Source: Gemmatimonadota bacterium (GTDB lineage: Bacteria; Gemmatimonadota; Gemmatimonadetes; Gemmatimonadales; GWC2-71-9). From it: a stretch of 37,183 nt of DNA. Below are positions 7,552 through 37,183 of the stretch, in pieces; the stretch's first letter is position 1, and every line of letters starts with the position of its first letter. The notes below the pieces were generated by a model that was not told the origin of the DNA, searched no databases, and worked only from the letters and a program-made list of their open reading frames with translations. The position numbers and the translations under genes were made by a program. The stretch lies in assembly GCA_039933355.1 (NCBI GenBank), contig JBDTOH010000002.1, positions 1 through 37,183 on the forward strand, written 5' to 3'.

Positions 7552-8642
7552 ACGATTCGGTGACGCGCCGCGCCTTTGCGGAACAAGCGCTCCGTGCTGG
7601 TGTGAGCCTGGGCCTGGTCGACTGGTTGCTGAGTGGTTGCCGGCCCAAAGACGCTCCGAATCCCCCCGCCGGCGAAGGCGGCGGGATGCCGCTCGAGCAA
7701 GAGCTGAGCCTGTACATCTGGTCGGACTATCTCGCCGACACGACGGTACCGGACTTCGAGAAGGAGTTCGGCGTCAAGGTGACAGTCGACAACTACGAGA
7801 GCAACGAGGAGATGGTGGCCAAGCTCCAGGCCGGCGCCTCCGGCTACGATCTGGTCGTGCCGTCGAGCTACGTGCTGACCGTGCTCAGGGCCGCCGGATT
7901 GCTCGCGCCGGTCGACCGGACGCTCTTACCTAACGCCAAGAATATCGCGCCCCTGTTCCGGAACCCGCGGTGGGACCCGGGAGATCAGGTCTCGATCCCG
8001 TGGCAGTGGGGGTTCACCGGCATCGCGTACCGCAAGGACCATATTCAGGTCCCTCCGGATAGCTGGGCGATCTTCCTCGACCCCAAGTATCGCGGCAAGA
8101 TGACCATGCTGGACGACGGCCGCGACGTGTTAGGCTCGTTCCTCAAGTCCCACGGCCACTCGCTCAATTCTGTCGCGCCGGCCGAGCTCGCGGAAGCCAA
8201 GACCGACGCAATCAGCGCCAAGAAGAACCTGAAGGCGTTCCTGTCCGCGCCGGTCAAAGGTCAGCTGGTGGCCGGGGATGTCTGGGTGGCGCAGCTGTGG
8301 AACGGAGACACGGCGCAGGCTCGGGCCGAGTCGGATCAGATCGGGTTCGCCCCGGCGAAGGAGGGGGCGACGATCTGGCTCGATGCGCTCGTCATTCCGA
8401 AAGCGGCCAAGCACAAGCGCGCGGCGCACGCTTTCATGAACTACATCCTGCGGCCGGAAGTCGGTGCGGCGATCTCCGACAAGACGGGCTATGGCACCCC
8501 GAACGCAGCCGCGATCCCGCTTACCAAGGCAAAGCTCCCCTACCCGTCGTCCGCCGAGCTGGCGAAGCTCGAATACCAGATTGATCTCGGGCCGGCCGGC
8601 GAGATGTGGGACCGAGTCTGGACCGAGGTAAAGTCCGCGTAG
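7548..8642 (+). CDS. potD: Periplasmic polyamine-binding protein (PotD/PotF family), probable lipoprotein
   Basis: GTG 7548 overlaps the potC stop (GTGA). This is the C-terminal part of listed ORF 6738..8642. The N-terminus has a TRRAF twin-arginine-like motif and a LLSGC lipobox. Body length and composition fit the PotD/PotF solute-binding family, and its position after potABC supports the call. Confidence 0.75.
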   Translation: MNDSVTRRAFAEQALRAGVSLGLVDWLLSGCRPKDAPNPPAGEGGGMPLEQELSLYIWSDYLADTTVPDFEKEFGVKVTVDNYESNEEMVAKLQAGASGYDLVVPSSYVLTVLRAAGLLAPVDRTLLPNAKNIAPLFRNPRWDPGDQVSIPWQWGFTGIAYRKDHIQVPPDSWAIFLDPKYRGKMTMLDDGRDVLGSFLKSHGHSLNSVAPAELAEAKTDAISAKKNLKAFLSAPVKGQLVAGDVWVAQLWNGDTAQARAESDQIGFAPAKEGATIWLDALVIPKAAKHKRAAHAFMNYILRPEVGAAISDKTGYGTPNAAAIPLTKAKLPYPSSAELAKLEYQIDLGPAGEMWDRVWTEVKSA

Positions 8643-8670
8643 TCCGCCGCTGGAGGTTTGGGCGCCGCCT

Positions 8671-8987
8671 GCCTACCGCGATGCCGAGACGTGCTATGAG
8701 CGGCTCGTCGCCGACCAGGACAAGAAAAAGGAAGAGCTGCGGAAGCAAGCCAAAAAGGACCAGCGAAACTATGACGAGCTCAACTACCGCGACGATCAGT
8801 TCGATCGGATGCGGCGTCGGCGCTCGCGATCTCGCTCGTGGCGCTGACTGCGCTGACCCACAAGAAACGGCTGTACTGGCTGGCCCTGCTGCCGGTCGCT
8901 CTCGGCGTCGTGATGGGTCTGGCCGGTCTCTTCGGCTGGCACATGCACTCGGACACACTGGCGGCTGCTCTCCTGACATCCAGCTAA
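8671..8987 (+). pseudogene. Truncated and frameshifted DUF4337-like gene remnant
   Basis: One frame reads AYRDAETCYERLVADQDKKKEELRKQAKKDQRNYDELNYRDDQFD with no usable start codon. After a 1-nt frame change near 8811-8817, the other frame continues AASALAISLVALTALTHKKRLYWLALLPVALGVVMGLAGLFGWHMH and stops at 8985-8987. Joined, they resemble the coiled-coil plus C-terminal TM hairpin of DUF4337 proteins. The N-terminal half is absent because potD ends at 8642. Confidence 0.35.
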
Positions 8988-9021
8988 CTCGATCGGAGCG
9001 CTAAAGGCTGGCAGCGACAAA

Positions 9022-9057
9022 GACGAGGCGGTGGAGCATGAGCCCCACCGCCTCGTC
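9022..9057. terminator. Hairpin terminator between convergent genes
   Basis: Perfect 13-bp stem GACGAGGCGGTGG (9022-9034) / CCACCGCCTCGTC (9045-9057) with a 10-nt loop. On the minus strand it lies 17 nt after the stop of the 9074..9721 gene and is followed by TTTGTCGC. Confidence 0.6.
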
Positions 9058-9073
9058 ATCCGCAGTCTGCTTC

Positions 9074-9721
9074 CTACAGCTTGTGCGCCGCAAAGCCCTC
9101 GACGTGGACATCCAGGTTGTGATTGACCCGCAGGCCCACGACGCCGCTCGGGTCGTTACCCGCCTTGTCCATGGAGTAGACCGATTTCCCGTTGACGATG
9201 AAATTGACCTTGTCGCCGGCCGCATCGACCTCGATCTTGTTCGTCGCCTTACCGTCGTCGCCGGCCTTGTTGACCGCGGCGTTCGGCGTCCAGTCCACCA
9301 GGCTCGAGGTCTCGGCGCCCGTCCGCTTTTTCACGAGGTACGTGCCGTCGCCGCGGATCAGGAAGTAGATGTAGCTCTGATTCGCGCCGTCGAGGTCCTT
9401 GCCGGCGAAGAAGATCCCGTACCCTTCCGGGTGCATGGGCGCCTTCATTTGGGTAAAGCTCGCAACCGTGTGGAACTTGGGTCCAACCGTGCCGGTCGCG
9501 GTATTGTAAAGAATCGCCGCGGGGCCCAGCGTGACGTGGTAGCCGCTCCCCATTGGGACGAACTTCACGTTCGCGACGGGCGCATCTTTGTCCGGCTTGA
9601 CCGACCAGCCGGCGGGCGGCTTGCCTCCGCCCGCGACGTCTTTGTCTTTGTCGGCTTGGGCCAGGGCGGACGCCGTGGCCAGCACTCCCAGAGCGAGGGT
9701 GACAGCGATGGTGGCCTTCAT
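9074..9721 (-). CDS. Secreted hypothetical protein, beta-rich (jelly-roll/lectin-like by composition)
   Basis: ORF 9074..9853 is trimmed to ATG 9721, giving the signal peptide MKATIAVTLALGVLATASALAQA. The rest is a beta-strand-rich sequence with no catalytic motif I recognise. Confidence 0.6.
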   Translation of the reverse strand: MKATIAVTLALGVLATASALAQADKDKDVAGGGKPPAGWSVKPDKDAPVANVKFVPMGSGYHVTLGPAAILYNTATGTVGPKFHTVASFTQMKAPMHPEGYGIFFAGKDLDGANQSYIYFLIRGDGTYLVKKRTGAETSSLVDWTPNAAVNKAGDDGKATNKIEVDAAGDKVNFIVNGKSVYSMDKAGNDPSGVVGLRVNHNLDVHVEGFAAHKL

Positions 9722-9856
9722 TGGTAGCTCCTTGACTGCGCGTTGTAGGGGGCCGCTGGGGCGCTGCTGAACTGCCGGAATTGCCCCCAGGGCTGGTGCT
9801 GGTGTACAATAGTGACGCCTGAGAACGCTACCCGTTGAACACGAGACGCTCAAGCC

Positions 9857-10021
9857 ATGCTCGAAAAAGTCGGCCGGGTCCTTGCTATCCTTGGCGCCGC
9901 CGGTATCCTCGGCGCCTTGACCTTCGTCACCCTGCTGATCGGTGTCCTGGTCAACGCTATGGTGACCCTGATGGCCGGTCCGCTCGTAGATAAGCTCCTC
10001 AAGGAGAAGAGCCAGGCTTAG
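9857..10021 (+). CDS. Small (54 aa) hydrophobic membrane protein, hypothetical
   Basis: It is absent from the ORF track because it is under 60 aa. Sequence: MLEKVGRVLAILGAAGILGALTFVTLLIGVLVNAMVTLMAGPLVDKLLKEKSQA. There are two hydrophobic segments and third positions are mostly G/C. No clear SD is present. It overlaps the 3' end of the convergent 9999..10376 gene by 23 nt. Confidence 0.35.
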   Translation: MLEKVGRVLAILGAAGILGALTFVTLLIGVLVNAMVTLMAGPLVDKLLKEKSQA

Positions 10022-10376
10022 CCGGCGGTTTTTCCTCGACCTTCTCGGGAGTAGTGGCGGAGCGCATCGCCCCGTCGAAGTTGACCTTCAGGCTCGCCAA
10101 TCCCTCCCGCAGGCCCCGCACTTTCATCTGGATTCCACCGCCCCTGCGGGACATGATCGCCATCATTCCGCAGGTTTCCGCAAGCGCACCGAGCCCCATG
10201 CCGGAGGCCCCTGCTTTCATCTCGTCCAGCGTTCGTCCCAGCCGCCGGACCACCTGTTCGTCGGCGCGGAGCCCAGCGATCTCTTCGATGAGCCTGTGAA
10301 TCGTTTCCATCCTGGGAGGGAACGTCTCCAGCACCGCAACTTGGGCCTGCTGCCTGGAGGAGAGCTTGACCGCCAT
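9999..10376 (-). CDS. Hypothetical helical protein, Hpt-like by eye but lacking the phospho-accepting His
   Basis: ORF 9999..10478 is trimmed to ATG 10376 (MAVKLSS). The segment LGRTLDEMKAGASGMGLGALAETCGMM resembles the Hpt consensus H-x-L-K-G-S-x-x-x-L-G, with Asp in place of the His. Confidence 0.45.
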   Translation of the reverse strand: MAVKLSSRQQAQVAVLETFPPRMETIHRLIEEIAGLRADEQVVRRLGRTLDEMKAGASGMGLGALAETCGMMAIMSRRGGGIQMKVRGLREGLASLKVNFDGAMRSATTPEKVEEKPPAKPGSSP

Positions 10377-10495
10377 CGGAAGTGCCCCGCTGCTAAGACC
10401 GTTGCAATCTACTTGAAACGGGGCGGCGGGGGTGGGAAAGCGGACACTGCTACCACCTAGCCCATCCTCCGATATCACACCCTGAACCCGTCTCT

Positions 10496-10858
<363 letters not shown>

Positions 10859-10927
10859 CGCGTCGTTGCATGGGGGCGGTCCTCCGACGGGACGATTTGA
10901 AGCTACCGCTGTTCCGACCTGCCTGCC

Positions 10928-13900
10928 CTAGTCACGCCGAACGGCGTCTTCTCCGAGGACGGCACCGAGCGCGTCGATCAGCTGGTCGGTGTCGGCGGGA
11001 CCAAAGCACAGCGGGGGCTTGATCTTGATCACGTTATGATCCGGCCCGTCGGTGCTGAGCAGGACCCCCTTGTCCCGCATCCGGTTGACGATGTAACTCG
11101 CGGCGCGGGCATCGGGAAGTCGCTCCGAGCGATCCGCGACCAGCTCGATTCCCACGAAGAGCCCGACACCACGGACGTCTCCGATCACCGGGTGCCGAGC
11201 CATGAGCTCCTGAAGCCGAGCGAGGAGGTCGTTACCGGTTTCGAGCGCCCGCCATTGGAGTCGCTCCCGCTCGATCACGTCGAGAACCGCGAGCCCGATT
11301 GCGGCGGACACCGGATTCCCGCCGAAGGTGCTGAAGTACTCCATGCCGTTCGCGAACGACGCGGCGATCTCGGCGCTGGTCGCTACGACGCCTAACGGGT
11401 GCCCGTTGCCGGCCGGTTTTCCCATCACCACGATGTCCGGAACGACGTCCTGAGTCTCAAACCCCCAGAAGCGGGCTCCGACCCGGCCGAACCCGACCTG
11501 CACTTCGTCGGCGATCGCGACCCCTCCGGCGGCACGGACCCGCGCGTACACCTCCTTCAAGTAACCCGGCGGCGGGACGATCTGGCCGCCGCAGCTCAGG
11601 ATCGGCTCGGCCAGGAACGCACCTAACGGTTGGCCCGCTTCCGCCAGCGCCGCGATCGCCCCGTCTACGTGCGCGGCGTAGGCCGTGCCGATTGACGGAC
11701 CGGTTCCGCGGTAGAGGCCGCGATAGGGGTCGGGAAGGGGGAGCTTCCGCGCGTACGGCGCGAGCCCGCGGCCGCCCGGCCCTTCGCACTTGTAGGGGCT
11801 CAGCTCGACCAGCGTGGTGGTGTTGCCGTGATACGCGCCGTCGAGCACGATCGTTCCGCGGCGGCCGGTGTGGGTCCATGCCAGCCGGAGCGCCAGCTCG
11901 TTGGCCTCGCTGCCCGAGTTGACGAAGAAGCAGACCCGGAGCGGATCGGGCAACGTGGCGGTGAGCCGCTCGGCGTAGCGGATCACCGTCTCGTGGAGGT
12001 ACCGCGTGTTCGTGTTGAGCACCGCCATCTCGCGCCGGCCGGCGTGAACCACGGCGGGATGCGAATGGCCGACATGCGAGACGTTGTTGACCGCGTCGAG
12101 GAACCGGCGGCCCTCGGCGTCGTAGAGATGCTGCATCCAGCCGCGGACGATGTGGAGCGGTCGCCGGTATGACACGCTCAGGTTCGGACCGAGCAGCCCG
12201 CGCCGCCGCGCGAGAATGGCGGGGCCGTCGAGCGCGTCCCGATCCCGGAGGTCGGGCACGCCGGCCAGAACATGGGGATCCGGGCTCAGGCTCCGCCACA
12301 CCCGGCGCTCGGCCGGCCGCGCGACGCCCGGGAACTCGCCGGTCCGGTCGAGGAGATCCGTGATGAGCTGGAAGTGAACGTGCGGCGACCAGCCGCCGTT
12401 GACGGCCGGCCCGCCTAACCGTCCGACGATCGCCCCCGCGGAAACCGGCTGGCCGGGTGAGACATCGCGGAGCGTCTCGAGGTCGAGATGGCCGTAGAGA
12501 GTATAGAATCGCCCGCCGCCGTCGCCGTCCTCGAAGGAGTGCTCGACGATCACGGTGGGGCCGTAGTCGCCCGGAGCGGCGTTGTTCCGCACGCTCTGGA
12601 CTTTGCCCGCGACTGGTGTGCGCACCGGCGTGCCGGCGCTCGCAAACAGATCGACCCCGAGGTGAATCGTGCGCCACTCCGGCCCCTCGATCCCCTCGAC
12701 CCGGTACTGAGCCGTCGTGTAGACCAGCCGGGCCTCGTCGTACTCCCCGATCCCAACCCGCGCGCCGCGCTCGGCGAGGAACCTCTCGATCCTGCCGCTC
12801 AGGCGGGGCTCGTCCGCGAGTAATCTCAAGTCGTCGATGAATGGGCTTCCCACCGAAAGGTCGATCCGCGCCGTTCTTCCACCCTCGGCATCCAGCGGGA
12901 TCACCGGGTTGAGCTCGCTGCGGTGTGCCTCGATCCATCGCGAAACCCGGACCGACGCCGGGGCCGGGTCGCGGCTGCAGGCATCCCGAAGCCGATAGTG
13001 CGCCAGGCGCGGATGGATATCGGCGAGGCGGGTGAGAAGCTCCCAGGCCGGCGCTTCGCTGATCACGAGATACGCGTCGTCCGGCATCACGGCGCGCTGC
13101 ATCGCGGAATTGACGACGCTCACGGCCAGCCGGGCGACGACCAGCGGGAACACGGCGGCCAGCTCCTGGTCCGTCAGCGGGTTCACCCGGTTGTAGCCGG
13201 CCACAATCGCACCGGCGACCGCGATCGGGTCCGCGGAGCGGAGCATTGCGTACGCGGCCGCGACCGCGATTTCAGCGACTCGGGCCGTCCGGAGCATGTC
13301 GCCGAAGTCGATGATGCCGACGGTCGGCGCCGACTCGTCAGCGCCGCCGGCGACGAGCACGTTGTAGTCGTTGCCGTCGTTATGGATGATCTGCGCGGGC
13401 AGCCGGTCCCAGATCGGCGCCACCTGCTCGCGGTAGGCGCGGAACATCCGCTCGACGAGGGCGCGCCGGCTCGGGTCTCGGATTGCTTCGAAGTGCCCGG
13501 CGATCCAGCCCGCTTGAGCGAGGTCCCATTTGAGGCTCCGGGTCGCAGCCGGGTGGTCGAGCCCGGCGAGCGCGGCGTCGATCCGGCCTAACAGCTCGCC
13601 GAGGGCCTCGAGCTGCGCGGGGGTCTTGGGGTGGAGCTCGGCGAGGGGGACACCGGGGACCCAGGTCAGCATCCGGGCCAAGTGGTGCGTACCGCCGAGC
13701 GGGACCGTCACGATATCGCGCCGATCAGGCGTCCGGATGACCCTCGGGGCCTGGGCGAGAGGGGCGGCGGCCGCGATCCGCTCCATGGCCGCGTGCTGAA
13801 GCTCCAGGACGGACCGGTCTTCCGTGCCGTTGGCGATCTTGAAAACCGCCCGCTGGCCGCCCGCCGTCTCGATCAGGAAGTTGCGATCGCGCTCGCTGGG

Positions 13901-14032
13901 CAGCTCGGTTGCGGTTCCCTCGAGCCCGAAGTGCTCGGCGGCGAGCCGGGCCGCTTCGGCCGGGTCGATTGGAGGTCGTGGATAGACCAGTTGGACGTCG
14001 GTGCGGGGTGCGTTTGTCATGGGTCGGCTCAC
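10928..14032 (-). CDS. Tri-domain fusion: APH-family kinase (hydroxylysine-kinase-like) + M23 peptidase-like domain + class III aminotransferase-fold enzyme of the AGXT2L/phospho-lyase type
   Basis: Kinase part (about nt 13960-13000) has the Brenner motif IIHNDGNDYNVLV and IIDFGDM. M23 part (about nt 12760-12350) has HLGVDLFASAGTPV, YGHLD and SPHVHFQL. PLP part (about nt 12200-10940) has LDAVNNVSHVGHSHP, ADEVQVGFGRVG and MGKPAGNGHPLG. The start is GTG 14032, or alternatively ATG 14020. Confidence 0.85.
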   Translation of the reverse strand: MSRPMTNAPRTDVQLVYPRPPIDPAEAARLAAEHFGLEGTATELPSERDRNFLIETAGGQRAVFKIANGTEDRSVLELQHAAMERIAAAAPLAQAPRVIRTPDRRDIVTVPLGGTHHLARMLTWVPGVPLAELHPKTPAQLEALGELLGRIDAALAGLDHPAATRSLKWDLAQAGWIAGHFEAIRDPSRRALVERMFRAYREQVAPIWDRLPAQIIHNDGNDYNVLVAGGADESAPTVGIIDFGDMLRTARVAEIAVAAAYAMLRSADPIAVAGAIVAGYNRVNPLTDQELAAVFPLVVARLAVSVVNSAMQRAVMPDDAYLVISEAPAWELLTRLADIHPRLAHYRLRDACSRDPAPASVRVSRWIEAHRSELNPVIPLDAEGGRTARIDLSVGSPFIDDLRLLADEPRLSGRIERFLAERGARVGIGEYDEARLVYTTAQYRVEGIEGPEWRTIHLGVDLFASAGTPVRTPVAGKVQSVRNNAAPGDYGPTVIVEHSFEDGDGGGRFYTLYGHLDLETLRDVSPGQPVSAGAIVGRLGGPAVNGGWSPHVHFQLITDLLDRTGEFPGVARPAERRVWRSLSPDPHVLAGVPDLRDRDALDGPAILARRRGLLGPNLSVSYRRPLHIVRGWMQHLYDAEGRRFLDAVNNVSHVGHSHPAVVHAGRREMAVLNTNTRYLHETVIRYAERLTATLPDPLRVCFFVNSGSEANELALRLAWTHTGRRGTIVLDGAYHGNTTTLVELSPYKCEGPGGRGLAPYARKLPLPDPYRGLYRGTGPSIGTAYAAHVDGAIAALAEAGQPLGAFLAEPILSCGGQIVPPPGYLKEVYARVRAAGGVAIADEVQVGFGRVGARFWGFETQDVVPDIVVMGKPAGNGHPLGVVATSAEIAASFANGMEYFSTFGGNPVSAAIGLAVLDVIERERLQWRALETGNDLLARLQELMARHPVIGDVRGVGLFVGIELVADRSERLPDARAASYIVNRMRDKGVLLSTDGPDHNVIKIKPPLCFGPADTDQLIDALGAVLGEDAVRRD

Positions 14033-30226: not shown

Positions 30227-32152
30227 ATGAGCGAACGAACTCAAGTGAATGTTCCGGCCGGTGCCGGCGATCCGATCGATCGTCTCCTCGCCCAGGTGAG
30301 GGATGCGGCCGCGGGGATCTACGATGTCCTCGGCGAGATGGGGCGGAGCAAGCGCGGGAACGTCGTCTATCTCGCCCGCGAGATCGAGACGTCCCGGCTC
30401 GTGGGCCTCAAGCTCACCAGGAAAGGCACCGCCGCCGACGGCGAGGAGTTCGACCTCGAGGTGCTCCGGGCCCTCGACAACTCCGTTCCGGGACTCGAAA
30501 GCAAGTGTCCCGAGTGCAAAGCAGTGCTGCCCGACTGGGAGCGGTTCTGTTTCCGGTGCGGGGCTGATCTCTCGAGCGTCGGATTCAACCCCGGCGGTGA
30601 AGAGGCGGCGCAACTGCTCCAGGCGGTGAAGGACGCGACCGCCGGCGACTACGAGATTCTCGGCCAGATGGACCGGGCGGACGGATCCGGGGTGGTGTTC
30701 TTCGCGAAGGACATCAAGCGCGACAGACTGGTCGCGCTCCGGCTCAAACGCGACGAGACGAGCGCCGGCGACCAGGCCGCCTACTACATCGGCGAGACCC
30801 AGGTCTTCAAGCCGCTCGCCGCCGAGCTTGGCGCGACGCAGGTGTTAGGCGCGGCGCAGCAGCCCGCGCTGCCGACTCCGCCGTCCATGCCCGCCGTCTC
30901 GCCATCGCAGGCGTCAGAAGTAGCGGCGTCGTCGCCGTCGACGGAAGTGCCGGTCGCACCGCGCCTTCCTGCACCGCCGAAGAAGTTTCCGATGAAAGTT
31001 CTGCTCGGAATCGGCGGGCTTGCCGTGGTCGGCGTGATCGCCGCCTTGGTGTTCAAGCCCAGCGACGGCGGAGGCAAGACCGGGGGCCCGGTTACCCCCC
31101 CGCCCGCGCAGCCGCCCGCACCGCCGCCGGGACCGCCAACCGTACCGCCAACCGTGCCCCCGCCCGAGCCGCCGCCGGAGCCACCGCCGCCTCAGCCTCC
31201 GGTCGCGTCCACGAATCCGGACTCCGGCACGATCACGATCGCGACGAAGCTGCCCCGCGACGCCCGGGTCACGCTCAATGGGCGAGCGCAGCGCGGCCTT
31301 TCCTTCCGGGTGCCGCCCGGGAACCACGTGCTCGAGGTCGTCGCCCAGGGGTACCAGCCGGTCACTTCGAGAATCCAGCTCAAGGCAAATCAGGTGTATC
31401 GCTGGCGTCCCGAGCTCGCCGCCGTGGTAGCTCAGGCGCCGCCGCCGCCCCCTCGGCCCGATCCCGCGCCGCCGCCCCCACCCCCCAAAGAGACCTGCAC
31501 CCGCGCCTTTGGCCGGAACGATTGGGCCCTGGCCGCGGACCTCTGTCAGAAGGAAGCCCAGGCCGGCGACGTAGCGGCCGAGCGGACGCTCGCGAAGCTG
31601 CAAGAGGACGGCAAAGGTGTTCCACAGGACCGAGTCCAGGCCGCTAACTGGTTTCGCAAGGCCGCCGAGGCCGGCGATCGCGAATCGATGCTCAAGATGG
31701 GTTACCTGTATCGGACCGGTACCGGTGTGAAGAAGGACGAAACCCAGTCCGCCATCTGGTTCAAGAAGACCGCGGAAGCCGGCGACCCGGTGGGTGAGCT
31801 CGAATACGGCGTTGCGCTCGAAAACGGCGACGGGATCTCGAAGAACGAGTCCGAGGCGGCGGTATGGTACAAGAAGTCGGCGGATCACGGCAATTCCTTC
31901 GGGGCGCGCCGGCTCGGCCGGCTCTATGAGCGGGGCAAGGGCGTCCGGAAGAACGAGGCGGAGGCCAAGGTCTTCTACGAGGCGGCGGCCAACAAGGGCG
32001 ACTCCGAGGCCCAGTATCTGTTAGGCAAGCTCTACAAGGACGGGAAGGGCGTCGAGAAGTCGCCCACGATGGCGCTCGAGTGGTTCAAGAAGGCCGCCGC
32101 CCAGGGTCACAAGGGTGCGGCAGACGAAGTGAAGGACCTCCTGAAGCAGTAG
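30227..32152 (+). CDS. Single-pass membrane protein: duplicated kinase-N-lobe-like modules + zinc ribbon / TM / Pro-rich / PEGA / Sel1 repeats
   Basis: Zinc ribbon CPECKAVLPDWERFCFRCG (nt 30506-30559). TM segment MKVLLGIGGLAVVGVIAALVF. Pro-rich linkers. PEGA-like domain GTITIATKLPRDARVTLNG..PPGNHVLEVVAQGYQP (about nt 31226-31381). At least five Sel1 repeats (AANWFRKAAEAGD, AIWFKKTAEAGD, AVWYKKSADHGN, KVFYEAAANKGD, LEWFKKAAAQGH). Confidence 0.8.
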   Translation: MSERTQVNVPAGAGDPIDRLLAQVRDAAAGIYDVLGEMGRSKRGNVVYLAREIETSRLVGLKLTRKGTAADGEEFDLEVLRALDNSVPGLESKCPECKAVLPDWERFCFRCGADLSSVGFNPGGEEAAQLLQAVKDATAGDYEILGQMDRADGSGVVFFAKDIKRDRLVALRLKRDETSAGDQAAYYIGETQVFKPLAAELGATQVLGAAQQPALPTPPSMPAVSPSQASEVAASSPSTEVPVAPRLPAPPKKFPMKVLLGIGGLAVVGVIAALVFKPSDGGGKTGGPVTPPPAQPPAPPPGPPTVPPTVPPPEPPPEPPPPQPPVASTNPDSGTITIATKLPRDARVTLNGRAQRGLSFRVPPGNHVLEVVAQGYQPVTSRIQLKANQVYRWRPELAAVVAQAPPPPPRPDPAPPPPPPKETCTRAFGRNDWALAADLCQKEAQAGDVAAERTLAKLQEDGKGVPQDRVQAANWFRKAAEAGDRESMLKMGYLYRTGTGVKKDETQSAIWFKKTAEAGDPVGELEYGVALENGDGISKNESEAAVWYKKSADHGNSFGARRLGRLYERGKGVRKNEAEAKVFYEAAANKGDSEAQYLLGKLYKDGKGVEKSPTMALEWFKKAAAQGHKGAADEVKDLLKQ

Positions 32153-32158
32153 CCCGGC

Positions 32159-33691
32159 CTAACGGGTGAGGTGCTTGATCAGCTCGCCGATCGCCGTGGC
32201 GATCTGCTTGGCGGTGCCGGGGCCTTTGGTAACGATCCAGTGGATCAGCGGCGGCCCGTAGGTGAATGCGGCGTGGACGGCCAGCATCGCCATGCCGATG
32301 AACAGCAGGCTCACCCCCATCAGCAGCAACGCCCCCGCGGCCGCCACGACCATTCCGACGGCAAAGACCGCATAGGCGAAGGCCATGAGCGGAAACAGCA
32401 GGATTCGCCGGAGCAGGTGTCGCTCGACTTTTCCCGTCCCATGCACCACCACCGCCCCGGCGGCTTCGAGCCGGTTGCGCCGTTTCCAGACGTTAGGGTG
32501 GAACCCGCCCCATACCGGAATCGATCCCGAGCCGCTACCGGCCACGAACAGCAGTGAGGTCACGCCGGGCATCATGCTCTTGTCGCTGGAGTCGAGCAGT
32601 GGTAGCGCGGAGGCGAGCGCGGTTGGATTTCGGGTGAGCTGGACCGCCGACATATCCGCGAGATAGCGGCGCGCCCGCCACACGGCCGCGAGCAGCGGGC
32701 CATACACCATCTGGGAGCCGAGCATCGAGAGGAATTGCGCGGTGGCGGCGCCGAGCCCGACCGGAATGATGATGACCGCGAGGATCCCCGGACTCCGGCC
32801 CGACGAGCCCTGGTGGTGGTCCTTGGGGTCCGTGGCCTCACCCGAAGCAAGCAGGGCTGCGACTTGTTCGATCTCGGTTCGGTCGCGGCGCCGGAAGGTG
32901 CTCTTGATTGCCCGCCACAGGCTCCGGCGAGCGCCCGCCTCGGCCGGCGCAGCCAGGATCACGCCGAGCAGCCCGAACGCCTGGAACACTGAGAGGAGAC
33001 GGGTCAGGACGATGAGATCGCCGTTGACGATCGACGCGATCCCGTGGCCAATGATCGCCTGGGTCTGATTGCGATCGAGCTTCTCGAGGAGACCGCGGGT
33101 TACGACCAGCGCCGCATCGGTCTCCGACGACCCGACGGTCGCGACGTTGGCGGCGCTCCGGTCGAGCAGCATCACGGCCGGCGGACGAATCCCCGCTGCG
33201 ATCGACATCTCTTCGACGAGATTGACGAGCTGGCGCTCCTCGAGATCGTTGGGCTTCGGTAGACGGGCGCCGAGGCTGAGCAGCACGCCTCCGGTGCCGG
33301 CCCGCCGGAAGAGCGCCTTGACCCAGAGCCAGGCGAGAAGCATCGCTGCCATGCCGGGGATGATCACCGCGAGCGCGATCTCCGCCATCAGGGTCCAATC
33401 GACGCCGCCGAGGCTCTTGGTATCGACGACATGCTCGATCTGGGCCGCGACGACGGGAACCGTTCTCCCGGTCTGGTCGAGGAAAGCCCAGAACGCGGGT
33501 GAGATCGGCGTGAACAGGTTGATCAGGTGCGCCCCGGTGAGGACGAACAGGAACAAGATTGGCGTGACGATGACGCTGATCGGGATGCCCGCGAGGAGAA
33601 CGGCGAGGATCGAGAGACCGGCGAACTTGAAGGTGCGCCGCCGGTTTACGGCCTGTTCCTCGTAGAATGTGGTGCGTTCGATGGGGGTCAC
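32159..33691 (-). CDS. M48-family (HtpX-like) membrane protein with degenerate zinc site (HGIAS instead of HExxH)
   Basis: GTG start. The family-typical N-terminus is TTFYEEQAVNRRRT followed by a TM segment. The core GGVLLSLGARL..DLEERQLVNLVEEMSIAAGIRPPAVMLLD..ALVVTRGLLEKLDRNQTQAIIGHGIASIVNGDL is colinear with active M48 enzymes (..VIAHEFSHILNGDM). Nt 33032-33046 encode H-G-I-A-S. Confidence 0.7.
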   Translation of the reverse strand: MTPIERTTFYEEQAVNRRRTFKFAGLSILAVLLAGIPISVIVTPILFLFVLTGAHLINLFTPISPAFWAFLDQTGRTVPVVAAQIEHVVDTKSLGGVDWTLMAEIALAVIIPGMAAMLLAWLWVKALFRRAGTGGVLLSLGARLPKPNDLEERQLVNLVEEMSIAAGIRPPAVMLLDRSAANVATVGSSETDAALVVTRGLLEKLDRNQTQAIIGHGIASIVNGDLIVLTRLLSVFQAFGLLGVILAAPAEAGARRSLWRAIKSTFRRRDRTEIEQVAALLASGEATDPKDHHQGSSGRSPGILAVIIIPVGLGAATAQFLSMLGSQMVYGPLLAAVWRARRYLADMSAVQLTRNPTALASALPLLDSSDKSMMPGVTSLLFVAGSGSGSIPVWGGFHPNVWKRRNRLEAAGAVVVHGTGKVERHLLRRILLFPLMAFAYAVFAVGMVVAAAGALLLMGVSLLFIGMAMLAVHAAFTYGPPLIHWIVTKGPGTAKQIATAIGELIKHLTR

Positions 33692-33700
33692 TGGCGCCCG

Positions 33701-34057
33701 TTAGAACGGCGGGCCGTAATTGATCGCGGCGAGGCGGCCCGGCCGGGGGGTTGGACCGGGGAGTTGGAGCGCCCCGAACGGCGAAAGGAGGGGCCGGGAA
33801 ACGTCGAGCTGGTGAACGAAGAAGACGACCCGCGTCCTTCCGTCGGGAAGCTGCTCCACCGGCTGCTCATCGTGCGGGAGCGAATCGGTGTCGACTGCGT
33901 CCTCTCCCTCGGGGTTGGACGCGATATCCGGGTCGTCCTGCCGGAAGGAACCCCAGTCGACGTCGTCGAAGGCGTCGCTCACCAGCACCTCGACGAGATG
34001 GATGGGCTCTACGGTGTCGACCGGGTAAACCCCGACGATCTGGATGGTACCAGCCAT
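33701..34057 (-). CDS. Small acidic hypothetical protein (118 aa)
   Basis: ATG 34057 with GAAGGA about 8 nt upstream. G/C-rich third positions. The Asp/Glu-rich centre reads DDVDWGSFRQDDPDIASNPEGEDAVDTDSLPHDEQPVEQLPDG. The stop is 9 nt before the M48-like start. Confidence 0.6.
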   Translation of the reverse strand: MAGTIQIVGVYPVDTVEPIHLVEVLVSDAFDDVDWGSFRQDDPDIASNPEGEDAVDTDSLPHDEQPVEQLPDGRTRVVFFVHQLDVSRPLLSPFGALQLPGPTPRPGRLAAINYGPPF

Positions 34058-34137
34058 TGAACAATCCTTCTGATTCGTGATGGACCGCAGATGAAAGGCG
34101 GGATCCAGATTCCGTTCACACGCTCAACGCCGACGGC

Positions 34138-34488
34138 TCAGACAAAATCACGGCGATCCAGCTCGGGGAAGGTGATGGTGCACGTTGCCGGATCGATCCC
34201 CTCGATGCGGACCTTCCCGTTCTGATCGAGGCGGCCGGTGACATGCTTACCGTTACCGACGAGCACGTCGAACGCAGCGCCGGGGACCGGCTTCTTGTCG
34301 GTATCGACGAGCTCGATGCCGATGAAAACGTCGGCCTTGTCGGGATCGACGACGAGAACCGAAGGCCCGGGCTTCCCGCTGCCGATCGAGCCGACGGCAG
34401 GCTCGCCCGGAGGGGGAAGGGGGCCGAGCTGGCAGGGAATGCACTCACCGAAGGCTTTGGTCTGCTCGTCGCGGAGCTTGGCCGTCAT
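34138..34488 (-). CDS. Hypothetical 116-aa protein carrying a beta-domain paralogous to the PAAR protein mid-region
   Basis: ATG 34488 lies 1 nt after the DUF4123 stop, with GGAG 9 nt upstream. Residues 55-111 (nt 34156-34326) are FIGIELVDTDKKPVPGAAFDVLVGNGKHVTGRLDQNGKVRIEGIDPATCTITFPELD. They align with PAAR protein residues 170-226. The N-terminus contains ECIPCQ. Confidence 0.65.
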   Translation of the reverse strand: MTAKLRDEQTKAFGECIPCQLGPLPPPGEPAVGSIGSGKPGPSVLVVDPDKADVFIGIELVDTDKKPVPGAAFDVLVGNGKHVTGRLDQNGKVRIEGIDPATCTITFPELDRRDFV

Positions 34489-34489
34489 C

Positions 34490-35047
34490 CTAGACGCTCC
34501 GGACGACGACGGGCTGAGCGCGTTCGACGCCCGAAGCCGCTTCGGGTCTCATCATGACGGTGACGCCATAGGTCGCCGGGTTCGTGAAGCCGACCGCGCG
34601 GGCCGGCCCGAAGAAATCCGCCAGCTCGCTCGACGTGCAGGTGGGGAGATACGCTTCCAGCACCCGCGGATCGTAGAATCGAAAATACCACTGGTCGCCT
34701 TCGGGCGTCTCAGCGACGAGAAACTTTCGATAGTGCTGGCGGAGAGCTTCGAGCGGTTCATCGCTGAGGACGAAGAATCCCCAGGGGGTTGGCCAGAGAG
34801 TCGAAGTGATCCACTCGTACGTGAGCTCATCGACATCGAACAAGTAGGGGGCGATTGCCGCGAGATCTTCCTCCGCCCGCCCTTTATAGAGGGACACGGC
34901 GCCCCGCTCGCCGACGTCTCGAGCGCGGTGCCACACGCCGGGCGCATCGCACGCGTCGACGACGGCCCGGAGCCGGCCGGCTTCGGCCCACCGCCGAATC
35001 TGGAGCACCGTGAACTCGCGTTGAGTCAGCTGCACGGGTCGCTGCAT
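34490..35047 (-). CDS. DUF4123-family protein (T6SS effector chaperone/adaptor family, Tap-1/TEC-like)
   Basis: 185 aa. The family pattern as I recall it is RAVVDACDAP..LYKGRAEEDLAAIAPYLFDV..WGFFVLSDEPLEALRQHYRKFLVAETPEGDQWYFRFYDPRVLEAYLP..LADFFGP. The FRFYDPRVL block is the hallmark. Confidence 0.7.
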   Translation of the reverse strand: MQRPVQLTQREFTVLQIRRWAEAGRLRAVVDACDAPGVWHRARDVGERGAVSLYKGRAEEDLAAIAPYLFDVDELTYEWITSTLWPTPWGFFVLSDEPLEALRQHYRKFLVAETPEGDQWYFRFYDPRVLEAYLPTCTSSELADFFGPARAVGFTNPATYGVTVMMRPEAASGVERAQPVVVRSV

Positions 35048-35219
35048 CGTCTCTCACGGCGAACGGCGGACGCTTTGGCACCGGGGAAATCAACCTCAAG
35101 ATACCGCATCGCTCGTTCGATCGGGGAAGACCGGGACCGGGTCGGGCGCAAAGGCGCCCACCATGCCCGGTGTCCGCGCGGGCTGGACACCGGCCTGCCA
35201 GCCAAGGAGATTGGTCGCT

Positions 35220-36440
35220 GTGTCGAAGCCCGCCGCCCGCCTGCTGGACATGCACGTCTGTCCGATGATCACGGTGCTGGTCCCGCACGTAGGCGGCCCG
35301 ATCGCGGGCCCCGGGGCTCCCACCACGCTCATCGCCGGAATGCCCGCTGCGCGGGTGACCGACATGTGCGTGTGCGTCGGTCCGCCGGATGTGATCGTAC
35401 TGGGATCGTTCACCGTGCTGATCGCCGGGATGCCCGCGGCCCGAGTTGGCGATCTGACCGCTCACGGCGGAACAATCCTTCCGCCGGGTTGTCCCACGGT
35501 TCTGATCGGTGACTCGGGCGGTGGCGCCGGCAGTCCGCAGGCGCGGACGATGGGCGCGGCCAAGGCGCAGGGCGCCGCGTTCACTCGCATGGGCTGCGCG
35601 GCCGAAGGCGTTATGCAGGCGCTGAAGGACTCTCCGCTTTTGGCGACCGGAGATCCCAATAAAAAAAGCTGGATCGAAATCGAACTGGTCGACCAGAAGG
35701 GCAAGCCGATACCGCACGAGCGGTTTCGGGTCGTTCCGCCGGACAAAAAACCGGTCGAAGGGTTTCTGGACGACAAAGGGTTCGCGCGAGTAGGGGGAAT
35801 CGACCCGGGAACCTGCGTGATCAGCTTCCCCAACCTGGACGCGGCTTCGTGGAAGCCCGAGGCTGGAGATCCGGGCCGGCGGGCAAAACCCGAAGTCGTT
35901 CCGACCGCCGGGCGGCCATCGATTGGGCCGGTGACGGTGCGCGGGCTCTTTGTCGGCAGGCCGTCCGTTGGACCGGTCAAAGTCAAGACGGTCGGACCCT
36001 CGATTGATCCGGTGCCAACTCCGACTTCACGACCGGGTGTGGGGTCCGTCACTACCCGCCTCGTGGTCGGGCCGTCGATCGGTGCCGTCAAGGTCAAGGT
36101 CCTGCAACGCAAGGCGCGCTTCGTCACCCAGATTCCGAACACGGTCCGCAAGGGAACGGTCCTCACCGTGCGGGGCCGTGACGGGAAGGAACTCTCGCGC
36201 GAGGACGTGGCTGCCGGCGCGAAAGGTCCCACGTTTCTCACGATTCCGCTCGATGAATTTCTCACCGAAGGGCTGGTCACCATCGAGATCGCATTGGCCA
36301 ACGGCAAAGTCGTGAACGGATTCTCCGTCGACCTCACGACGCTCCTCGCGGTTCAGCAGGCAGGTGCGACGATCGAGCGATTCGCTAAAGACCTCGGGCT
36401 CAACTTGGGTCCCGCCATCACTTCGCGCGACGACCAGTAG
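35220..36440 (+). CDS. PAAR-domain spike protein with about 300-aa C-terminal extension (no recognisable toxin domain)
   Basis: The preferred start is GTG 35220 (SKPAARLLDMHVCP), with AAGGAG at 35204-35209. The listed ORF starts at ATG 35163. PAAR domain features: PAARLLD, HVGGPIAGPGAPTTLIAGMPAARVTDMCVCVGPPD, LIAGMPAARVGDLTAHGGTILPPGCPTVLIGD. The extension has a beta-domain (nt 35670-35849), short GPS-I/V-GPV-K-V-K repeats (nt 35907-36101) and an unknown C-terminal domain. Confidence 0.85.
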   Translation: MSKPAARLLDMHVCPMITVLVPHVGGPIAGPGAPTTLIAGMPAARVTDMCVCVGPPDVIVLGSFTVLIAGMPAARVGDLTAHGGTILPPGCPTVLIGDSGGGAGSPQARTMGAAKAQGAAFTRMGCAAEGVMQALKDSPLLATGDPNKKSWIEIELVDQKGKPIPHERFRVVPPDKKPVEGFLDDKGFARVGGIDPGTCVISFPNLDAASWKPEAGDPGRRAKPEVVPTAGRPSIGPVTVRGLFVGRPSVGPVKVKTVGPSIDPVPTPTSRPGVGSVTTRLVVGPSIGAVKVKVLQRKARFVTQIPNTVRKGTVLTVRGRDGKELSREDVAAGAKGPTFLTIPLDEFLTEGLVTIEIALANGKVVNGFSVDLTTLLAVQQAGATIERFAKDLGLNLGPAITSRDDQ

Positions 36441-36443
36441 CCC

Positions 36444-37183
36444 ATGGACGTCTTTCTTCTCCATGTCGCGGTGCTCGAGCTCCGGCACTCGTCGGATCAT
36501 CAGAGCTGTGGGTACGGGCGGACCACGGAGGCGACGGTCTCCGTCAAGGTGAACGACGCGGCCATCGCCCCGGTGCTCACGACTTTCGGAAGCGATTTCG
36601 CGTTCAGCTCCCCGCTCAACCCCGAGGATCGGCTCACCATTACGGTCACGCCGAAGAATCCCGATTTCCATGTGATCGATGGGGGCTTCGTCTACCAGGG
36701 CGACGGGCAGTTTCGCCGGCGCGCGGACACGCCGATCGAGCGGGCGGGTTTCGCGCCGCCGCAGTCGATTCAGTTCGACGTGACGCTTGGTCTGGTGCCG
36801 CTCAACGCGGCGCTGTTCCAGTGTTATGTCTCGAACCTCGCTGACGTCACCACGAAAGTCGCGGGCATCCTCTCCAAGGCGGCCGGCGGCGTCGACGTGA
36901 TCGCGCAGTTGGAGGCTGCGGAGAACAATCATTGGATTCGGCCAACACCGGTCCCGAACGCCGGGTCGCCGCCCCAGTACGAGGTTCGCCAAGTCGATCC
37001 GCGCGCGAACATCCGCTGCTACGAGATTGGCGGGAAGGTGATCCCCAAGCTGGTCATGACGACATGGCCCAAGAACGTCGACAACGCGGTCTCCGCGCTG
37101 CCGGGCCTCGTCATGGTTCATCCGATCCTCAGTGCCTACTACGCATCGAGCAAATACCCGTTCGGCAAGCAGCACCTGTGGGA
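36444..37183 (+). CDS. Unlisted ORF downstream of PAAR gene, 3' end outside window (candidate cargo/effector, function unknown)
   Basis: ATG 36444 is 3 nt after the PAAR stop. I checked the frame codon by codon and it is open for 246 codons to the window edge, with overwhelmingly G/C third positions. The product begins MDVFLLHVAVLELRHSSDHQSCGYGRTTEATVSVKVNDAAIAPV. It is absent from the ORF track, presumably because it has no in-window stop. The listed antisense ORF 36027..37175 is the mirror artefact. Confidence 0.7.
   Translation, partial: MDVFLLHVAVLELRHSSDHQSCGYGRTTEATVSVKVNDAAIAPVLTTFGSDFAFSSPLNPEDRLTITVTPKNPDFHVIDGGFVYQGDGQFRRRADTPIERAGFAPPQSIQFDVTLGLVPLNAALFQCYVSNLADVTTKVAGILSKAAGGVDVIAQLEAAENNHWIRPTPVPNAGSPPQYEVRQVDPRANIRCYEIGGKVIPKLVMTTWPKNVDNAVSALPGLVMVHPILSAYYASSKYPFGKQHLW

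Follow-up and report, generated by a model that had tools for sequence, protein, structure and literature searches.

Which secretion machine uses a spike tip that is encoded with no machine gene in view, and what would that tip carry? The right end of contig JBDTOH010000002.1 from a Gemmatimonadota bacterium (assembly GCA_039933355.1) raises this question, since a gene for a PAAR spike-tip protein stands there back to back with a gene for a DUF4123 adaptor. The window analyzed here is the entire contig (37183 nt), and its right end falls inside the candidate effector gene that follows the PAAR gene. Exact matches to four of the window proteins, and to a 50-mer in genome contigs, were sought in the searched collections and gave no hit. 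We consider it probable that the right end of the contig is a stand-alone, orphan (auxiliary) type VI secretion system (T6SS) cargo island, whose layout is typical of Gemmatimonadota and common to many of them, and that no new machine is involved.

Six open reading frames (ORFs) had been named in an initial annotation of this DNA, and all of them were confirmed at their coordinates from the ORF list and by reading the sequence. The junctions were confirmed as well. On the minus strand they measure 1, 80 and 9 nt from the DUF4123 gene through to the M48 gene. On the plus strand, 3 nt separate the PAAR gene from the ORF that starts at 36444 (ORF 36444). The features are the following.

35220..36440, plus strand: PAAR spike-tip gene, 406 aa from GTG (PAAR_motif 2.6e-21; start read from the sequence)
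36444..37183, plus strand: candidate effector, N-terminal 246 codons of a protein of ~520 aa (full-length homologues, model, triad)
35048..35219, no strand: divergent intergenic region of 172 nt between the DUF4123 and PAAR starts (coordinates)
34490..35047, minus strand: short DUF4123 (Tap/Tec-type) adaptor, 185 aa (Pfam DUF4123 8.6e-31)
34138..34488, minus strand: stand-alone TTR-like protein, 116 aa (paralogy to the PAAR-internal domain)
33701..34057, minus strand: acidic protein, 118 aa, predicted small all-beta fold (12 clusters, model)
32159..33691, minus strand: HtpX-like (M48) membrane pseudo-protease, 510 aa (Pfam M48 1.3e-9)

The identities proposed for the PAAR, DUF4123 and M48 proteins were borne out by Pfam, where all three scored above the cut-off. 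The 118-aa protein and ORF 36444 had no match.

The divergent unit and the machine it serves

The window proteins were mapped onto all fetched loci (cited by number, L001 and so on). These loci are related, and the counts given here are not counts of independent events. In 18 loci the PAAR and DUF4123 genes are divergent, the PAAR protein carries the TTR-like domain, and a small TTR gene directly follows the DUF4123 gene. In a further 24 loci PAAR and DUF4123 are co-directional and neither TTR is present; for this class it has to be considered that PAAR extensions of Bacteroidota escaped the TTR query. A small TTR gene follows DUF4123 in 18/19 divergent loci, the single exception being L096, which is divergent and encodes a PAAR-TTR protein without the small TTR protein. 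Judged from sequence, divergence, PAAR-TTR and small TTR travel together and constitute a stable clade architecture. Across the loci the cargo side is polymorphic and the adaptor side constant.

The initial annotation had regarded the layout as a broken version of the canonical order vgrG-DUF4123-effector-immunity. The layout indeed differs from that order, having no vgrG and a TTR-like gene behind the adaptor, but the divergent unit is a stable architecture of its clade in 18 loci and not a disruption. The suggestion of an undescribed spike-loading variant thereby survives, in the form of the conserved unit PAAR-TTR <-> DUF4123 -> small TTR. Co-occurrence of all six genes was found in part: PAAR-TTR, DUF4123 and small TTR stay together, the acidic gene is variable in position and the M48 gene is facultative. 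A recent insertion of the DUF4123-TTR pair in the window alone was also considered and rejected, as the pair is the conserved part and the acidic gene the mobile one.

A scan with the PAAR protein yielded 63 related loci, ~50 of which carry vgrG, clpV or tssF by tblastn. The best match (L001) is 74% identical over the full length, and L001 and several other close matches are Gemmatimonadota metagenome-assembled genomes (MAGs). Full T6SS-i clusters are present in Gemmatimonadaceae MAGs, and PAAR genes that are 73-79% identical in the PAAR domain lie there inside tssF..clpV-vgrG-DUF6931-PAAR clusters (L004, L012, L043). A Chitinophagaceae locus has the order vgrG-DUF4123-PAAR(extended)-633 aa-OmpA-clpV-tssB-hcp-tssC. 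As an unbiased scan, an alignment of the DUF4123 clade was run against metagenomes, resulting in 48 loci. In L101 and L123 the order is clpV-vgrG-PAAR-DUF4123, with DUF4123 relatives 40-49% identical. In L088 the order is PAAR-TTR <-> DUF4123-TTR-162aa-vgrG, and the vgrG product ends in a TTR domain. Because PAAR and DUF4123 relatives reside in clpV-vgrG clusters, because L088 provides a link to vgrG and because no genes of another contractile system were seen in the inspected loci, a T6SS with its genes elsewhere in the genome is the likely user of the module. In genomes with a T6SS, orphan PAAR/VgrG islands are well established (PMC10433429).

That no core genes of a machine are in view was corroborated by Pfam and tblastn of the window. 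VgrG, Hcp, TssB, TssC, TssF and ClpV gave no tblastn match in the window at E<=0.1, apart from one TTR-to-TTR match, and Pfam assigned the larger ORFs of the 33 kb on the left to housekeeping families only (metabolism, transport, efflux). PAAR-like tips are present on other contractile systems besides the T6SS. Together with the lack of a T6SS core gene within 33 kb, this would be compatible with an earlier proposal, namely that the PAAR module serves a different contractile machine such as an extracellular contractile injection system (eCIS) or similar. We regard this as very improbable. The DUF4123 family consists of T6SS adaptors, most of the PAAR relatives have vgrG, clpV or tssF beside them, close relatives of both proteins are found inside clpV-vgrG clusters, and L088 joins the same divergent module to vgrG. 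Sheath, tube and baseplate genes of the eCIS type (Afp/PVC) were found neither in the window nor in related loci with scanned ORFs, and none of another system were seen in the inspected related loci.

Adaptor, spike tip and candidate hydrolase

The DUF4123 protein contains WYFRFYDPRVLEAYL, and its domain reached 107.1 bits in Pfam against a cut-off of 25.8 (E 8.6e-31, residues 28-143); NCBIfam gave a weak match to Tla1. Tap/Tec adaptors are bilobed. The conserved N-lobe (177 aligned residues) binds the C-terminal helix-turn-helix of VgrG, the variable C-lobe binds the effector, and vgrG lies upstream of the described Tap genes (PMC11582642). With 185 aa, the window protein would be about the size of the VgrG-binding N-lobe alone, a comparison made by length only. 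Aligned DUF4123 relatives have about 160-200 aa, some of them being partial extracts. Upstream of the DUF4123 gene there is no vgrG, and the downstream gene encodes the 116-aa TTR-like protein. The DUF4123 clade is tied to PAAR genes in every orientation.

The 116-aa protein had been described as a paralogue of a domain inside the PAAR protein. An alignment to PAAR residues 144-230 confirmed this, with 42% identity over 88 aa (E 9e-16). Prealbumin-like Pfam matches of the 116-aa protein stayed below the cut-off (CarboxypepD_reg 0.0028, SpaA 0.0051). Searching the PDB with a TTR profile gave weak, non-significant matches (6sjl residues 781-831 and 6h56 at E 1.5), including the TTR domains of VgrG1 of enteroaggregative Escherichia coli (EAEC) and of VgrG2b. 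The same TTR-like domain forms the end of VgrG in L018 and L088, a Bryobacteraceae VgrG ends in a TTR-like domain, and loci of Planctomycetota and Pedosphaera have similar small proteins after vgrG. The small TTR family comprises 33 clusters; none has a protein name, and the only two with source names are both annotated as Gemmatimonadota. VgrG TTR domains bind lipase cargo, and DUF4123 adaptors tether effectors to VgrG via the conserved N-lobe (PMC7043769; PMC10433429; PMC11582642).

Just upstream of the TTR cores, the free 116-aa protein reads EQtkAFgeC (window 34396-34488) and the PAAR protein AQgaAFtrmgC (35550-35640). Small TTR proteins of planctomycetes have KAEQ..Q.GKYG at the matching place. 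The short DUF4123 protein could dock on a helix formed by the shared motif. The free TTR protein, encoded 1 nt downstream, may supply the missing half of the adaptor or act as a co-adaptor. The initial annotation had placed the 116-aa gene in the effector position. An effector role was rejected, since the protein lacks toxin features and is a constant partner of the short DUF4123 clade.

The longest PAAR ORF spans 35163-36440. A GTG at 35220 gives MSKPAARLLDMHVCPMI and is likely the true start, as read from the sequence. Three PAAR motifs, HVGGPI and PPGCPTVLIG, are readable in the protein, and PAAR_motif (PF05488) scored 76.1 bits against a cut-off of 27 (E 2.6e-21). All parts of the protein lie on the plus strand.

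nt 35283-35480, plus strand: PAAR domain (Pfam)
about nt 35592-35852, plus strand: helical linker and TTR-like beta-sandwich (paralogy to the 116-aa protein)
window 35860-36110, plus strand: Gly/Pro/Val-rich spacer, PAAR residues ~236-315 (sequence)
about nt 36105-36419, plus strand: C-terminal X domain of ~110 residues (similarity to OmpA-like C-termini)

The spacer between TTR and X holds several GPS[IV]GPV-like peptide repeats; a tandem-repeat scan found no repeat in it at the DNA level. The X domain is homologous to the C-terminus of OmpA-like proteins that are encoded just before distant homologues of the effector (L075, E 1e-5 and 1e-4; weaker in L073), and in P0018 the OmpA-like protein and the effector are fused. 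The closest relative of the window (L136) is 90% identical in the PAAR domain, 73% in DUF4123, 77% in TTR and 80% in M48. Its PAAR protein is short and lacks the X domain; behind it come genes for a PG_binding_1 protein, for an OmpA-like protein and for a hydrolase homologue. L138, an 85-kb contig, has a string of PG_binding_1/OmpA-like/hydrolase-type cassettes behind the PAAR gene. The window lineage thus appears to have an effector-cognate domain fused straight onto the spike tip. Because the X domain occurs in fusions on the PAAR protein, on OmpA-like proteins and with the effector, we infer that X binds the hydrolase.

ORF 36444 covers the first 246 codons of the candidate effector, which form its beta-rich half; the C-terminal half lies beyond the contig end. 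Full-length homologues of 518-522 aa are 64-80% identical to ORF 36444. Two relatives were found in a word-indexed database, and pattern scans recovered none in metagenomes and only L001 in genomes. The family was recovered by an exhaustive HMMER search and comprises 13 representative clusters among 1.84 billion proteins, with full-length members of 470-560 aa. Genes for full-length homologues of the effector were in all cases located behind a PAAR-X gene; in L065, L070-L072, L085, L138 and L140 this is at the same 3-nt spacing. Six members gave no Pfam match at E<=1 and the family had no NCBIfam match, hence no Tle-associated model matched; a search of ORF 36444 against PDB sequences gave nothing significant. 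An AlphaFold model of an 80%-identical homologue (pLDDT 82, pTM 0.87) has a beta-rich N-terminal half and an alpha/beta C-terminal half. The leading Foldseek matches in the PDB were almost all alpha/beta hydrolases, namely chlorophyllase, DPP4/FAP, cutinases, polyethylene terephthalate (PET) hydrolases and esterases. Three residues do not vary among the full-length members: Ser351, which lies in a G/A-x-S-x-G elbow where a strand passes into a helix, Asp381 and His495. Judged on the full-length homologues, the C-terminal half of the effector is predicted to be a Ser-Asp-His alpha/beta hydrolase.

The contig end at 37183 and position 4050 of L001 (JAYUZK010000345.1, an independent Gemmatimonadota MAG) are the same nucleotide, in effector codon 246 (...CTGTGGGA). 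The L001 contig is ~80% identical to the window around this shared end, and other assemblies hold full-length effector genes. Local conservation does not explain the coincident ends: the last 90 bases are the best conserved, yet only 8 terminal bases are identical.

In relatives a conserved protein of 136-141 aa is encoded after the effector, with 55% identity between two lineages. It is a candidate immunity or partner protein. By eye, a signal peptide is not evident in the effector or in the small partner proteins. The peptidoglycan-binding partners hint at a target in the envelope. L073 (CP157005.1, a 5-Mb genome) has, at 8237-13184, an HTH_17 gene, an OmpA-like protein of 436 aa and a hydrolase homologue of 511 aa beside a PG_binding_1 protein. 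A 285-aa protein beside this cassette ends in the same TTR domain.

Such partners raise another reading of the cargo, in which the hydrolase and its partners form a peptidoglycan-associated enzyme system of the cell envelope that was captured beside PAAR genes, and are not injected toxins. The OmpA-like and PG_binding_1 modules of the partners, the L073 cassette without PAAR and the lack of a match of the set to any recognized toxin or immunity family would be in line with this. We consider it improbable, as the spike protein PAAR-TTR bears the X domain as a fusion and its gene is followed after 3 nt by that of the hydrolase. In addition, the cassette of PAAR, acidic 118-aa, hydrolase and 141-aa genes is inserted among differing housekeeping genes, as expected of a mobile cargo island, and the cargo side is polymorphic against a constant adaptor side. 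The effector and its small partners also lack an evident signal peptide for Sec export to the envelope.

An injected cargo would be loaded and delivered as follows. The PAAR cone, extended by the TTR-like adaptor domain and the C-terminal X domain, would serve as the spike tip. The candidate hydrolase, whose gene may be translationally coupled to the PAAR gene 3 nt upstream, would be held by the X domain. The mini-DUF4123 protein and the free TTR protein would help to mount PAAR-TTR with its cargo on a VgrG trimer encoded elsewhere, and T6SS firing would then deliver the spike with the cargo. We infer every protein-protein contact in this scheme, the co-adaptor role of the small TTR protein and the target of the hydrolase. 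In its most specific form we put the proposal forward only tentatively: in Gemmatimonadota, loading may be centred on PAAR, with an N-lobe-only DUF4123 protein and a free TTR protein replacing the bilobed Tap and mounting PAAR-TTR and cargo on VgrG, the cargo being a hitherto unrecognized Ser-Asp-His hydrolase family recruited by the X domain, which can be carried either by the PAAR protein or by peptidoglycan-binding OmpA-like helpers.

Several points weigh against an orphan T6SS island with a hydrolase cargo. A T6SS in the source genome is presumed, with no core gene found on the contig, which ends inside the effector gene. There is no vgrG before the DUF4123 gene, unlike in every neighbourhood described for Tap proteins (PMC11582642). 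The TTR assignment is based on sub-threshold Pfam matches and non-significant PDB profile matches and has to be read as putative, and the co-occurrence counts come from related genomes. The Foldseek matches of the effector were weak (E >= 3e-4, TM <= 0.39). Candidate immunity proteins without an N-terminal signal sequence evident by eye fit poorly with a periplasmic target. Finally, the complete genome L073 has the set of peptidoglycan-binding, OmpA-like, hydrolase and TTR proteins without PAAR nearby.

Neighbouring genes and the M48 pseudo-protease

The acidic protein contains 20 D+E against 6 K+R. It had no Pfam match, and a sequence search of the PDB gave nothing significant. Its family has 12 clusters. 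The model is a small all-beta fold (pLDDT 82.6), for which Foldseek returned only chance-level Ig-like matches and no PDB match. In loci without DUF4123, TTR and M48 (L001, L065-L072) the acidic gene is directly divergent from PAAR-X. It precedes DUF4123 in L064 and L090, lies between the TTR gene and M48 only in the window, and is absent from the closest relative (L136) as well as from L085 and L138. From these positions, the acidic protein appears to move with the PAAR-X/hydrolase cassette. In the closest short-form loci, L001 (193-1563) and L069 (2038-3405), a gene for a protein of 455-456 aa comes after the acidic gene, and the next gene in L069 faintly matches an MmeI-type methyltransferase. 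By eye, the 456-aa sequence looks like a restriction-modification or BREX-type protein, and the cargo cassette may adjoin defence genes there.

Peptidase_M48 matched the 510-aa protein with 38.6 bits against a cut-off of 20.3 (E 1.3e-9), and HtpX (3cqb) with E 2.4e-10. The HEVSH motif of HtpX aligns to HGIAS in the window protein, with Gly in place of Glu and Ser in place of the second His; the earlier description as protease-dead was correct. A homologue in L064 with 48% identity has HLIGS in place of HExxH. From the aligned motifs we regard the M48 protein as a conserved pseudo-protease. Hydropathy indicates about 6-7 hydrophobic segments.

The initial annotation had the operon end in the M48 gene, which leads to the question of whether M48 is part of the module. 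A scan with the single M48 sequence gave no loci and an alignment of two sequences gave 12 loci; most loci with adjacent M48 were fetched with M48 as the query. In many Gemmatimonadota loci M48 abuts the DUF4123-TTR pair. In the metagenome sample obtained with the DUF4123 query, it follows the pair in L090 and L093 and does not follow it in 6/8 loci with downstream DNA (L088, L091, L095, L102, L117, L118). It also occurs without any island, after tig-clpP in L076 and in L081, L082, L084 and L087, and it keeps synteny with downstream housekeeping genes. M48 as an obligatory member of the module was rejected, being alone in L076 and missing after six DUF4123-TTR pairs. The M48 gene is probably a conserved chromosomal neighbour beside the island and possibly co-transcribed with it.

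Alternatively, M48 could be a working part, either as an inner-membrane immunity or decoy protein or as a cargo or partner of DUF4123-TTR, so that DUF4123-TTR-(acidic gene)-M48 would form one unit. In favour of this, the genes are closely spaced (9 nt in the window; <= about 20 nt or overlapping in L078-L086, L090, L093, L136 and L138), and the adjacency persists across homologues that are only 45-50% identical. Moreover, neither of the two homologues examined has kept the catalytic motif, and M48 lies downstream of the adaptor, at the place expected of an effector. We nevertheless consider such a role unlikely. The count of adjacent loci is biased by the M48 query, homologues exist without an island, and the DUF4123-TTR pair ends at a convergent gene without M48 in L095, L102, L117 and L118 and is followed by vgrG in L088. 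Synteny of M48 is with the housekeeping genes downstream and, in three loci, with an extracytoplasmic function (ECF) sigma factor gene. A protein with 6-7 hydrophobic segments is also an unlikely T6SS cargo.

The ECF sigma factor gene adjoins M48 in L080 (5194-5802), L087 (4512-5114) and L138 (11876-12484). With this neighbour, the M48 protein may have a role in signalling at the membrane, for example as an anti-sigma-like factor. In L064 (3169-4837) a TY-Chap1 protein and an AAA ATPase are encoded after M48; such a pair is typical of conflict systems and is absent from the window.

Promoters for both directions are presumably located in the 172-nt intergenic region 35048..35219. A consensus scan found no sigma-70-like site, although the sigma-70 consensus says little for this phylum, and the terminator count was at chance level. 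Further to the left, an ORF of 1034 aa (window 10928-14032, minus strand) encodes both Peptidase_M23 (residues 456-557) and, at 626-1025, a complete class-III aminotransferase; provided that the ORF is real, such a fusion is unusual. The 641-aa protein at 30227-32152 (plus strand) carries a zinc ribbon, two protein-kinase-N-lobe-like repeats, a proline-rich segment, PEGA and five Sel1 repeats. L078 and L079 have a 50-52% identical homologue of it in the same position, convergent on the M48 gene.

Comparison with known systems

To our knowledge, T6SS biology in Gemmatimonadota is essentially unstudied, and cargo loading is known almost entirely from Proteobacteria, where a bilobed DUF4123 protein is encoded after vgrG. 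The island and about twenty relatives suggest that a phylum of soil and freshwater, itself little studied, has a stable alternative, with a half-sized adaptor tied to PAAR, a free TTR copy and a rare predicted hydrolase. If the proposed contacts are true, the T6SS repertoire would gain a new way of loading cargo and a new effector family, and simple sequence markers would be at hand for cargo islands in metagenomes of Gemmatimonadota. The island does not alter the general concept of a T6SS.

Orphan or auxiliary T6SS islands, such as the auxiliary clusters of Vibrio cholerae and the vgrG islands of Pseudomonas aeruginosa, likewise combine a spike-tip gene with genes for a DUF4123 adaptor and a coupled cargo, lie away from the core cluster among housekeeping genes and are polymorphic in cargo between strains. 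In contrast to them, the island described here has no vgrG, the adaptor is divergent and followed by the small TTR gene, and the effector gene is behind the PAAR gene. The nearest precedent for the pair of DUF4123 and free TTR proteins may be the P. aeruginosa PAAR4 - TecT (DUF4123) - co-TecT - TseT system, reportedly described by Burkinshaw et al. in 2018. Both share PAAR-centred delivery and a DUF4123 chaperone with a small accessory protein encoded alongside. They differ in that the accessory protein here is a TTR-like paralogue of a domain on the PAAR protein and so looks like another kind of accessory protein, in that the DUF4123 protein has the size of an N-lobe, and in that the genes are divergent.

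The Tap6/Tap14-type adaptors (Colautti et al. 2024, PMC11582642) share the DUF4123 domain. Taps are bilobed with vgrG upstream, whereas the adaptor here, PAAR-linked and only 185 aa long, would be too short to include a C-lobe. The cargo classes found together with DUF4123 include alpha/beta-hydrolase and Tle-type effectors (PMC11582642). Similar to the C-terminal TTR domains of VgrG (EAEC VgrG1-Tle1; P. aeruginosa VgrG4b-PldA and VgrG5-PldB), a small putative beta-sandwich is located here on a spike component beside a gene for hydrolase- or lipase-type cargo. Here the domain is on PAAR and additionally a free protein, and its similarity to solved TTR domains is non-significant (E 1.5). The effector-binding role appears to have passed from TTR to the extra X domain. 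Like the phospholipases Tle1-Tle5, the effector is encoded next to spike and adaptor genes and is predicted to be an alpha/beta hydrolase with Ser-Asp-His and a nucleophile elbow (GxSxG). In contrast to Tle1-Tle5 it matches no Pfam or NCBIfam family, is rare and has peptidoglycan-binding partners. The M48 protein resembles HtpX in its catalytic-domain homology and multi-pass membrane topology, but has lost HExxH and is thus a pseudo-protease. Compared with the described islands, this one is set apart by an N-lobe-sized, PAAR-linked adaptor, a free TTR paralogue, a divergent adaptor operon, an undescribed family of predicted hydrolases with a portable X domain, and its occurrence in Gemmatimonadota.

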